From Planctomycetota bacterium (GTDB lineage Bacteria > Planctomycetota > PLA2 > JAEUHO01): DNA of 64,000 nucleotides. Positions 44,676 through 46,894 of the stretch are shown piece after piece; the first letter of the stretch is position 1, and each line of letters opens with the position of its first letter. The stretch is taken from positions 13,047 through 77,046 of the forward strand of contig JASJAY010000011.1 in assembly GCA_030066775.1 (NCBI GenBank), given 5' to 3'. The notes beneath the pieces are model-generated. The model was not told where the DNA came from. It saw only the letters and a list, made by a program, of their open reading frames with translations, and ran no database searches. A program made the position numbers and the translations under genes.

Positions 44676-45494
44676 ATGAGCCGTCGCACGATCAGCTTCT
44701 GGACCCGCCGGCCGATCCTGATCGGGGTCGTGCACATGCCGCCCCTGCCGGGCGCGCCGCGCGCGGTACCCGCCGTTGCGGGCCGCCGCGCCACGTGGAT
44801 CCAGCGCGCCGTCGAAGACGCCCAGGCGCTCGAGGACGCGGGCTTCGACGCGGTCACGATCGAGAACTACGGCGACGCGCCGTTCTTCAAGGACCGTGTG
44901 CCCCCCGAGACGACGGCTGCCTTGGCCGTCGCCACCCACGCGGTGCGCGAAGCGCTCGCCTCGCGCACGGCGGTCGGGGTCAACGTGCTGCGCAACGATG
45001 CGCTCAGCGCACTGGGGATCGCCGCGGCGTCGAGCCTGGACTTCATGCGCGTCAACGTGCTGACCGGCGCCATGGCCACCGATCAGGGCGTGATCGAGGG
45101 CAACGCCGCCGCGGTGCTACGAGCCCGCGCGCGCCTGGCGCCCGACGTGCGCATCCTGGCCGACGTGCGCGTGAAGCACGCCGCCCCCGTGGCGGCGCGG
45201 CCGATCGCGGAGGAGGCCCGCGATCTAGCGGGTCGCGGCGGCGCCGACGCGCTGATCGTCACGGGCGGCCGCACCGGCGGCGGCGTGGACACGGACGAGC
45301 TCCAGGCCGTGTGCGATGCCGTGCCCGACGCGACGGTGCTCGTCGGCTCGGGCGCGACGCGGGACACGGTCAGCGAGCTGCTCGGCATTGCCGACGGCGT
45401 CATCGTCGGGACGGCGATCAAGCGCGGCGGCCGCACCACGAACCGCGTCGACCCAGAGCGGGCCGCGGCCTTCGTGGAGGCCGCGCACAGCTAG
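44676..45494 (+). CDS. BtpA/SgcQ family TIM-barrel protein
   Basis: IGVVHMPPLPG..., NVLRNDALSALGIA, LIVTGGRTGGGVD..VLVGSGAT pattern of BtpA family. Confidence 0.65.
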   Translation: MSRRTISFWTRRPILIGVVHMPPLPGAPRAVPAVAGRRATWIQRAVEDAQALEDAGFDAVTIENYGDAPFFKDRVPPETTAALAVATHAVREALASRTAVGVNVLRNDALSALGIAAASSLDFMRVNVLTGAMATDQGVIEGNAAAVLRARARLAPDVRILADVRVKHAAPVAARPIAEEARDLAGRGGADALIVTGGRTGGGVDTDELQAVCDAVPDATVLVGSGATRDTVSELLGIADGVIVGTAIKRGGRTTNRVDPERAAAFVEAAHS

Positions 45495-46894
45495 CCGTCC
45501 TGCTTGACCTCCACGTCGGCCCCGACGGCCTTCAGGCTCGCGGCCATCTCGTCGGCCTCCGCCTGCGTCAGCCCGGACTTGATCGTCTTGGGCAGCCCCT
45601 CGGTCAGGGCCTTTACCTCGGCCAGCCCCAATCCCGTCGCGGCGCGCAGCGCCTTGAGCAGCTCGACCTCGTTCTCGCCAGTCGCCTTCAGGACGACCTG
45701 GAACGTCTCGATCGCGGGCGGCTCGATGGGCCCCGGCCCGACATCGCCGTCGGGCGAGCCGGCGGCCATGCCGTCCGGCGAACCCGCGGCTTCCTTGTCA
45801 CCGTCGCCGTCGTCCGGGGCGGGTGCCTCCGGCGGCTTGACCTCGTAGGCCTCGGTATCGCGCCGGAAGTCGGCCAGCTGGTAGGGCGCGACCTCGTAGA
45901 CCCAGGGCAGGCCGTCCACCTGGACGTACTGCATCTTGCCGTCCTCGGTCTTGGCCCCCACGACCAGCCGGAAGTTCGTGACCTCGTCTCTCACGTTGCG
46001 CTGTCGGACGCGCACGATGGCGTCCGGCTCGTCGAAGCCGAAGGTCGCCTCCGTGGCCTGCGTCACGTTCGCCGCGGCGATGCGGGCGAAGCGCAGGCCC
46101 GAGAACGAGCGTACGAGGTCCTGGACCTTGTCGCTGTGCGCGTCGGTGATCTTCGGCTCGAGCAGGACCCAGGTTTCCGCGTCGTCGCCCTCGTCCTTGG
46201 CCGGGACCGTGGCGCCCACGTGCTTCTTGGACTCGCCCTTGCGGGCCAGCACGGCCTTGCGCGAGAAGGCGGGCTGCTCGATCTCGACGCGGATCACGTC
46301 CTCGCCCAGGACCGTCTTGAACAGCCGCGGCTCGACCCAGCGGTCCACTTGCACGGCGGCCATGTCGCGCGTGATGTTGATCGTCTGGAGGATGCGCGCG
46401 TCCTCGCCTTCGCCGACGCGGGTGAAGAGGTCCGGGTACCGCGCCGTGTTGCCGAGGGAGAGCTTGGCGAGTTCCTTCCCGCCGGCCGCGAGCACCTCGA
46501 TGTCGAGCCAGCCGGACGGGCCGGCATACTCCTCGAAGGTCTCCTGGCGGGTCGTGATGAGCTTGCGGATCCGCATCGTCTCGAGACCGCTGAGGAGGCG
46601 CTCCTCGCGCCCCGTCACGATCGGATAGCCGGACTGGGTGCTGACGACCCACTGGCCGTTCGGCTTCATCGTGAGCACGAGCTCGCTCGCGGGCTCGTTG
46701 TCACTCGGGCCCGCCTGGTAGAGCTTGATCACGCGTGCCTGGTCGGCCTTGAAGCCGGGGAAGACCTTCTCGAGGCTCTCCTCGTTCACACCGGACGTGC
46801 GCGCCGGGCTCAGCACGAGCACCAGCAGCAAGGCGACGGAAAGGACGGCGAACGCGACGTTGCGCCGCTCGAGCGACTTGAGGCGACTGCTCAT
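45491..46894 (-). CDS. membrane-anchored DUF4340-like protein fused to a ribosomal protein L7/L12 C-terminal domain
   Basis: N-terminal TM, GldG-associated DUF4340-like body, Pro/Gly/Asp-rich hinge, then FQVVLKATGENEVELLKALRAATGLGLAEVKALTEGLPKTIKSGLTQAEADEMAASLKAVGADVEVK (about 50 % identical to E. coli L7/L12 CTD); ATGA-coupled to upstream GldG-like gene. Confidence 0.65.
   Translation of the reverse strand: MSSRLKSLERRNVAFAVLSVALLLVLVLSPARTSGVNEESLEKVFPGFKADQARVIKLYQAGPSDNEPASELVLTMKPNGQWVVSTQSGYPIVTGREERLLSGLETMRIRKLITTRQETFEEYAGPSGWLDIEVLAAGGKELAKLSLGNTARYPDLFTRVGEGEDARILQTINITRDMAAVQVDRWVEPRLFKTVLGEDVIRVEIEQPAFSRKAVLARKGESKKHVGATVPAKDEGDDAETWVLLEPKITDAHSDKVQDLVRSFSGLRFARIAAANVTQATEATFGFDEPDAIVRVRQRNVRDEVTNFRLVVGAKTEDGKMQYVQVDGLPWVYEVAPYQLADFRRDTEAYEVKPPEAPAPDDGDGDKEAAGSPDGMAAGSPDGDVGPGPIEPPAIETFQVVLKATGENEVELLKALRAATGLGLAEVKALTEGLPKTIKSGLTQAEADEMAASLKAVGADVEVKQDG

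Follow-up and report, generated by a model that had tools for sequence, protein, structure and literature searches.

Domains related to the C-terminal domain (CTD) found in ribosomal protein bL12 (L7/L12) have been described outside the ribosome before. Phage proteins of up to 724 residues carry embedded bL12 domains and have homologues from which the domain is absent (Mizuno et al. 2019, Nat Commun, PMC6375957), and a cyanobacterial orthocaspase contains a Ribosomal_L12 accessory domain (PMC8283722). A protein of the DUF4340 family has been reported to be essential in Verrucomicrobium spinosum (PMC12283558). Here, we describe a gene that joins a DUF4340 protein to an L12 CTD. It was found in a stretch of 64,000 nucleotides from a Planctomycetota bacterium (GenBank assembly GCA_030066775.1, contig JASJAY010000011.1, positions 13,047 to 77,046), which is referred to as the window in the following; all positions are those of the window. 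A sequence-only reading of this DNA had noticed the L12-like C-terminus and suggested that it could tether translational GTPases to a membrane complex or act as a decoy for them.

A DUF4340 protein ending in an L12 domain

The product of the fusion gene begins with an N-terminal membrane anchor, which is followed by a DUF4340 ectodomain, an acidic disordered linker of 44 residues and a complete bL12 CTD. It is identical to the NCBI entry MDJ0973388.1, which bears the title 'MAG: ribosomal protein L7/L12 [Planctomycetota bacterium]' (MAG, metagenome-assembled genome). This name is a misannotation that stems from the match of the C-terminal domain, and a more fitting description is that of a transporter-accessory protein of the DUF4340 family whose C-terminus carries an L12-type domain. 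The assigned start codon is backed by an identical N-terminus, MSSRLKSLERRN, in the orthologue P0002 and in the NCBI record. The possibility that the CTD is made separately, starting at the internal Met376, was considered and rejected: the nearest Shine-Dalgarno-like sequence, AAGGAAG, lies ~20 nt upstream, and the methionine is a threonine in the orthologue.

The C-terminal region matches the Pfam CTD profile of Ribosomal_L12 (PF00542) over its full length, with residues 398-464 covering positions 1-67 of 67 (E = 1.3e-18, 67.5 bits versus a cut-off of 25.9), far beyond what chance would produce. In the AlphaFold2 model of the entire protein, calculated from a 34-sequence alignment with a mean predicted local distance difference test score (pLDDT) of 89.9, residues 398-465 form a β-α-α-β-α-β domain with pLDDT values of 93-96, which superimposes on the bL12 CTD structure 1CTF with a root-mean-square deviation of 1.0 Å. 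All sequence matches of the fusion protein in the PDB are bL12 proteins and are confined to residues ~384-464. The identity to Escherichia coli bL12 is 48% in this domain. The closest CTDs overall belong to genuine bL12 proteins with 58-60% identity, among them sequences from Kofleriaceae and Phycisphaeraceae MAGs, and those of non-ribosomal proteins with several CTD copies reach at most 53%. Since the genuine bL12 CTDs are the closer ones, the sequence of the fusion CTD fits a derivation from an rplL-type gene. The preceding part of the protein belongs to the DUF4340 family (PF14238; E = 9.8e-15, 55.7 bits versus a gathering cut-off of 25) and folds into three α/β modules over residues ~50-350 of the model, behind a single N-terminal hydrophobic segment. 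Both halves of the protein thus carry the identities that the sequence-only reading had given them.

The protein as a whole is a DUF4340 member and part of a GldG-type ATP-binding cassette (ABC) module, not a bL12. The N-terminal domain of bL12 (PF16320) gave no Pfam match, and a full-length L12 hidden Markov model (HMM) hits the protein with positions 58-126 only. The NCBIfam L12 equivalog (TIGR00855) is likewise matched with its C-terminal half only (positions 58-125), and its score of 65.4 bits stays below the cut-off of 84.4 bits. Together with the loss of basic residues described below and an unfitting size and gene context, these results exclude an assignment as bL12.

The fusion is genuine, as it is encoded by one uninterrupted open reading frame (ORF) of uniform codon usage and recurs in an independently assembled orthologue. 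The G+C content at third codon positions (GC3) amounts to 0.955 for the DUF4340 part and to 0.958 for the CTD, at a G+C content of ~70% for the window, and neither a remnant of the L12 N-terminal domain nor a second rplL-like sequence was found in any frame of the window. The orthologue P0002, with its variants P0273 and P0274, is 70-71% identical and has the same architecture. Its contigs, which stem from at least six different sequencing runs (SRR26421362, -363, -364, -365, -369 and -370), show the same order of permease, GldG-like and DUF4340-L12 genes, the fusion ORF is intact in every assembly seen, and the junction PIEPPA[IL]ETF is kept between the orthologues. This answers the concern of the sequence-only reading that the C-terminus might be a frameshifted fragment of a separate rplL paralogue, and provides the related fusion that it had asked for. 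A mis-assembly or a frameshift joining an rplL paralogue to the DUF4340 gene, hinted at solely by the database name with its suggestion of a separate gene, is hardly credible against the continuous ORF, the uniform GC3, the absence of an L12 N-terminal domain from all frames and the recurrence of the same junction in the orthologue.

At the same time the fusion is rare and confined to one narrow lineage. In an exhaustive HMMER search of 1.84 billion protein representatives, of which the 150 best hits were examined, 31 proteins had E-values of 1e-30 or better. The DUF4340 homologues P0003-P0034 (366-430 residues, 33-40% identity at best) match residues 1 to ~392 of the query only, and for two of the 31, P0001 itself and P0015, it is the CTD that is matched. 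Outside the query's own 50%-identity cluster (P0001), DUF4340 is not combined with an L12 CTD in any of the 150 best hits. When the full protein or its residues 1-352 served as the query of a word-indexed homologue search, the protein itself and one orthologue were the only hits. A search of the GTDB species representatives, which do not include the source genome, with a 3-sequence alignment gave one related locus, L001, from a Planctomycetota MAG (CBDCWP010000008.1); its DUF4340 protein is 35% identical, lies in the same four-gene order and has no CTD. A scan of JGI metagenomes gave no relatives.

The CTD-less relatives also clarify the nature of the linker, which the sequence-only reading had compared to the hinge of L12. 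In the model, linker residues 367-387 have pLDDT values below 50. The homologues P0003-P0007 and L001 end in similar acidic Pro/Gly/Asp tails with the same AAGSPDG-type motif, and the tails of the CTD-less relatives often run on into TonB-like (K/D/E-P)n repeats. Because these tails exist without the domain, the linker is, judging by the homologous sequences, the C-terminal tail that this DUF4340 subfamily had ancestrally, and not an L12 hinge, and the CTD would have been added to this tail or swapped for its distal part.

The fusion gene is the last of four overlapping or abutting genes on the minus strand, following genes for an ABC ATPase, an ABC-2 permease and a GldG-like protein. Its ATG (46894-46892) overlaps the TGA stop codon of the GldG-like gene (46893-46891), so that the ATGA coupling and the operon noted earlier were both borne out. 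With an ABC_tran ATPase, an ABC-2 permease and an ABC_transp_aux protein in overlapping genes, the operon has the composition of a GldA/GldF/GldG-type module, a kind associated with gliding motility in Bacteroidota and present here in a Planctomycetota MAG, and the fusion protein, with its N-terminal anchor and its position directly downstream of the ABC_transp_aux gene, has the context expected of a DUF4340 protein. The GldG-like protein is 43% identical to its L001 orthologue. Both contain a hyper-acidic low-complexity insert of Pro, Asp, Glu and Lys, which in the window protein comprises ~100 residues (~440-545); the L001 gene is at 5547-7997 of that locus.

Predicted location and surface of the domain

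The location of the L12 domain decides whether it could meet translation factors at all. In a Kyte-Doolittle scan the N-terminal segment, modeled as a helix of residues 3-28, is the only window above 1.6; the runner-up, a 19-residue window with a value of 0.98, lies inside a CTD helix. The segment is preceded by four basic residues, R4, K6, R10 and R11, the last two of which do not vary in the DUF4340 family alignment. In the GldG-like partner, a transmembrane (TM) helix lies at either end and the C-terminus (RRSQRS) is basic, so that the large domain between the helices is likewise predicted to lie outside the cytoplasm. Most structural neighbors of the DUF4340 modules are extracytoplasmic domains as well. 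From the positive-inside rule and the topology of the GldG-like partner, the N-terminus of the fusion protein is predicted to be cytoplasmic and everything after residue ~33, including the CTD, periplasmic. Export of the CTD is predicted for either fate of the N-terminal segment, retention as an anchor or removal as a signal peptide. A cytoplasmic L12 domain, as the proposed GTPase tether would need, is thus at odds with the predicted topology, which removes the premise of access to EF-Tu, EF-G and IF2.

Helices 4 and 5 of the bL12 CTD, with K65, V66, I69, K70, R73 and K84, make up the common surface to which IF2, EF-Tu, EF-G and RF3 bind, as reported by Kothe et al. in 2004, Diaconu et al. 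in 2005 and Helgstrand et al. in 2007. To describe its conservation, the CTDs of both fusion orthologues were aligned to 121 canonical bL12 CTDs, in which 35 columns are at least 90% conserved. Thirteen of these columns are altered in one or both orthologues. K65, a lysine in 100% of the canonical sequences, is replaced by E or Q, and further basic columns read (window protein/orthologue) K81→A/A, K84→K/Q, K59→K/T, K95→K/Q, K100→Q/K and K111→K/G. The remaining changes are V72→L/I, A83→V/A, V87→T/T, G89→G/D, A90→L/L and E96→S/S. Hence, the near-invariant basic set of K65, K70, R73, K81 and K84 on helices 4/5 is not preserved: K70 and R73 are kept, and two or three of the five basic residues are gone. 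The hydrophobic and glycine core (F54, V56, L58, G62, T76-G-L-G-L80, P91, L110, G114 and A115) is untouched.

The rate of evolution was estimated by a Nei-Gojobori codon comparison of the window gene with L002, the locus of cluster member P0273. Between the orthologues the CTD is 66% identical (65-66%) and the DUF4340 part 72%. For the CTD, a nonsynonymous rate (dN) of 0.27 and a synonymous rate (dS) of 0.50, the latter unreliable and probably distorted by the extreme GC3, give a ratio (ω) of 0.55 with a bootstrap range of 0.29-0.99. Values of 0.46 (0.34-0.66) and 0.40 were obtained for the DUF4340 part and the GldG-like protein, respectively. These comparisons suggest that the CTD has been kept folded while evolving like the rest of an envelope protein, and not like a ribosomal factor-binding surface.

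Possible roles and alternatives

We consider it fairly likely that the fusion protein is the DUF4340 subunit of a GldAFG-like ABC-2 transporter and that its rplL-derived CTD serves as a tethered periplasmic docking or capture knob, with a function unrelated to translation. The protein would act as the DUF4340 accessory subunit of the GldA/GldF/GldG-type module, either held in the inner membrane by its one N-terminal helix or released by cleavage of a signal peptide, while the remainder of the chain would extend into the periplasm, next to the large domain that the GldG-like protein has there. Proteins of this planctomycete subfamily have a long, acidic, proline-rich and disordered tail, to the end of which a bL12 CTD, copied from an rplL-type gene, would have been added in one narrow lineage; its codon usage is now fully matched to that of the host gene. 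Freed of ribosomal constraint, the domain still folds as an L12 CTD and has lost several GTPase-contact basic residues. Carried on a flexible tether of ~44 residues, such a small globular knob could capture a protein or another ligand, or serve as a docking module in the envelope.

Other proteins suggest that such a use would not be isolated. Non-ribosomal proteins with 2-7 tandem copies of the CTD account for 104 of the 150 best hits. Their partner domains include LRV/HEAT repeats (P0035, P0042), a KAP P-loop NTPase (P0051) and a PNP_UDP phosphorylase with pentapeptide repeats (P0083), and TIR-like N-termini are present in P0079, P0091, P0105 and P0130. A conservative heuristic finds, in ~29 of the 104, a signal-peptide or lipobox-like segment at the start, immediately ahead of the CTD repeats; examples are P0036, P0038, P0045, P0046, P0053, P0072, P0081, P0088, P0096, P0104 and P0131. 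In P0036, Cys residues flank each L12-CTD repeat, and P0038 is a lipoprotein with six CTD copies and Ser-rich linkers. Judged by their sequences, these signal-peptide proteins would imply an extracytoplasmic role for the L12-CTD fold. An L12 CTD outside the ribosome is not unprecedented, then, and exported versions appear to be common. This qualifies the view that the architecture is undescribed: no description of DUF4340-L12 was found in the searchable literature, nor one of re-used L12-CTD modules as a class, but L12 CTDs outside the ribosome as such are common in metagenomes and have been published for phages. A tentative extension, which we regard as possible and not as probable, is that the L12 CTD has a translation-independent binding role outside the cytoplasm. 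The fusion and the signal-peptide tandem proteins would then form one undescribed class of envelope proteins, with the fusion CTD capturing a periplasmic or outer-membrane partner or a substrate for the GldG-type exporter.

Several points weigh against a docking or capture role. The periplasmic location is a prediction from the positive-inside rule and the topology of the family, and the role as an interaction knob is deduced from the architecture. Because the canonical bL12 sequences were picked for their similarity to the query, the column frequencies against which the 13 altered columns were counted are biased. K70, R73 and E82 of the factor-binding helices are kept, so that a leftover affinity for GTPases is compatible with the sequence. 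With 0.99 as the upper end of its bootstrap range, the ω of the CTD is compatible with near-neutral evolution, the underlying dS suffers from the distortion mentioned above, and the fusion is known from two sequence lineages only.

The rival account that best withstands the evidence takes the CTD as a functionless or nearly neutral passenger, which the 3' end of the gene acquired accidentally, perhaps when a duplicated rplL fragment became joined to the open disordered tail, and which, as a small and stably folding domain in that place, is free of cost; at most it would shield the disordered tail from proteolysis. The occurrence in a single 50%-identity cluster and the same operon in CTD-less relatives agree with such a passenger, as does the status of the CTD as the fastest-evolving folded part of the protein, with the identity and the range of ω given above. 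Yet no change has occurred in its hydrophobic and glycine core at a dS of ≈ 0.5, the ORF is intact in all assemblies seen, the junction with the linker is conserved, and the fully ameliorated codon usage implies long retention. We regard a mere passenger as rather unlikely, though clearly the foremost of the rivals.

Recruitment or sequestration of EF-Tu, EF-G and IF2 at the transporter by a cytoplasmic CTD, as tether or decoy, is improbable. The domain is a bona fide bL12 CTD, as close to real ones as stated above, it retains K70, R73 and E82, and it sits on a flexible tether as in the ribosomal stalk. However, the basic charges lie N-terminal to the one hydrophobic segment, a second segment that would return the C-terminus to the cytoplasm is absent, and the bulk of the GldG partner is located between its two TM helices. 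K65 and K81 are replaced in both fusion CTDs, as is K84 in the orthologue, the dN of 0.27 at a dS of 0.5 is far above the tolerance of a factor-binding bL12 surface, and the bL12 N-terminal domain for dimerization and uL10 binding is missing. The tether or decoy put forward by the sequence-only reading does not hold up under these findings, and there is no support here for a coupling of translation factors to the membrane transporter.

Even less probable is a periplasmic target mimic, in which the CTD would bind an incoming toxin, bacteriocin or antibiotic directed against bL12 and pass it to the ABC exporter or sequester it. The CTD is physically linked to an exporter, predicted to be extracytoplasmic, and has kept the overall shape of bL12. 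Small molecules and effectors directed at bL12 or the stalk do exist: KKL-1005 is one (PMC12548414), and another is Cami1, solved with the 70S ribosome (8phj, the bL12 chain of which is among our structure matches). Against a mimic speaks that the surface it would have to preserve is the part that drifted, and that the fusion is very rare although the operon type is widespread. A periplasmic docking or capture knob on a DUF4340 subunit remains the account that we favor.

Genomic setting and comparison with known systems

The features of the locus are listed in Table 1. The TAG stop codon of the fusion gene (45493-45491) overlaps that of a convergent gene of the BtpA family (44676-45494, plus strand) in a CTAG palindrome at 45491-45494, which leaves zero intergenic room for a terminator between the two genes; a scan of the minus strand of the window for promoters and terminators gave nothing useful.

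Table 1. Features of the fusion gene, its product and the operon
Feature	Position	Strand	Basis or remark
ABC transporter ATPase, first operon gene	49528..50556	-	Pfam ABC_tran, E = 3.6e-30
ABC-2 family permease	48810..49592	-	Pfam ABC2_membrane_2/3/4; exact start uncertain, maybe ATG at 49535
GldG-like accessory protein, 639 residues, DUF7088 + ABC_transp_aux	46891..48810	-	Pfam, hydropathy
Shine-Dalgarno sequence AAGGAG, 9 nt upstream of fusion-gene ATG	46904..46909	-	sequence read
Fusion gene, complete, 467 residues	45491..46894	-	ORF list, Pfam, exact database match
Single hydrophobic segment, residues ~11-33, signal anchor or signal peptide	46796..46864	-	Kyte-Doolittle scan, AlphaFold2 helix
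DUF4340 ectodomain, residues 34-352, three α/β modules, predicted periplasmic	45839..46795	-	
Disordered acidic Pro/Gly/Asp linker, residues 353-396, net charge -9	45707..45838	-	pLDDT, charge, homologue tails
bL12 (L7/L12) CTD, residues 397-465	45500..45706	-	

Upstream of the ABC operon, at a distance of 335 bp and on the same strand, lies a gene for an NYN-domain protein with a predicted RNase fold (50892-51959). Further away, a 2004-residue protein (35889-41903, plus strand) combines CBM9-like, HAMP, GAF and GGDEF domains with a sigma-54 activator AAA+ domain, an unusual signaling architecture, and an ORF of 1298 residues (52859-56755, minus strand) has a strong coding signal (GC3 0.94) and a weak Ion_trans match at residues 282-395 as its sole Pfam match. 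No phage genes were found among the neighbors scanned, which include genes for an Fe/Mn superoxide dismutase, the BtpA-family protein, an AIR-synthase-related protein and a peptidase M28 family protein.

Compared with known systems, the kinds of components are known and the DUF4340-L12 domain architecture, rare and restricted to one lineage, is new. With the ribosomal bL12 CTD (PF00542; 1CTF, 8YEQ) it shares the fold, a clear homology and the arrangement as a globular head on a flexible tether. Unlike bL12, the fusion lacks the domain for dimerization and uL10 binding, its CTD, predicted to be periplasmic, stands at the end of a 467-residue envelope protein and has substitutions at K65, K81 and further near-invariant surface positions, and the CTD evolves at about the rate of its host protein. 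The DUF4340 relatives encoded downstream of GldG-like genes (P0003, L001) have the same anchor with an RRN motif, the same three-module ectodomain, the acidic Pro-rich tail and the operon order, but their chains stop with the disordered tail, which often contains (K/D/E-P)n repeats, and have no L12 CTD. The fusion offers a clean and datable case of a ribosomal domain exapted onto an envelope protein, with CTD-less sister genes for comparison.

In the phage bL12-domain proteins (PMC6375957), the CTD is likewise embedded in a larger non-ribosomal protein with close homologues that do not have it, which implies an independent gain of the domain. The phage proteins are encoded by phages, cytoplasmic and reported to have retained the contact residues for uL11, EF-G and EF-Tu, whereas the fusion is cellular and envelope-associated, has lost some of the contact residues and has no viral context. 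In the tandem exported proteins (P0036, P0038, P0046, P0072) an L12-CTD-like domain likewise follows a Sec signal peptide or lipobox; they differ by their 2-7 copies, by the lack of DUF4340 or a transporter context and by CTDs at most 53% identical to that of the fusion. The L12 CTD is thus a widely re-used module, and its pattern in exported and conflict-system proteins may deserve a study of its own. If the CTD has a defined extracytoplasmic ligand, the fusion would tie the L12 CTD to GldG/DUF4340 ABC systems, and an extracytoplasmic binding role, if true, would provide a handle on the function of the DUF4340/GldG transporters and on the targets of the exported L12 CTDs. A probably periplasmic L12 head is mildly surprising to a specialist. 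With the N-degron adaptor ClpS the domain has the fold alone in common, as neither the sequence family nor the N-degron pocket of ClpS was recognized. By way of analogy only, the layout of the fusion resembles TonB and TolA, which likewise link an N-terminal inner-membrane anchor through a charged, Pro-rich spacer to a small C-terminal α/β head, and whose head contacts partners across the periplasm.

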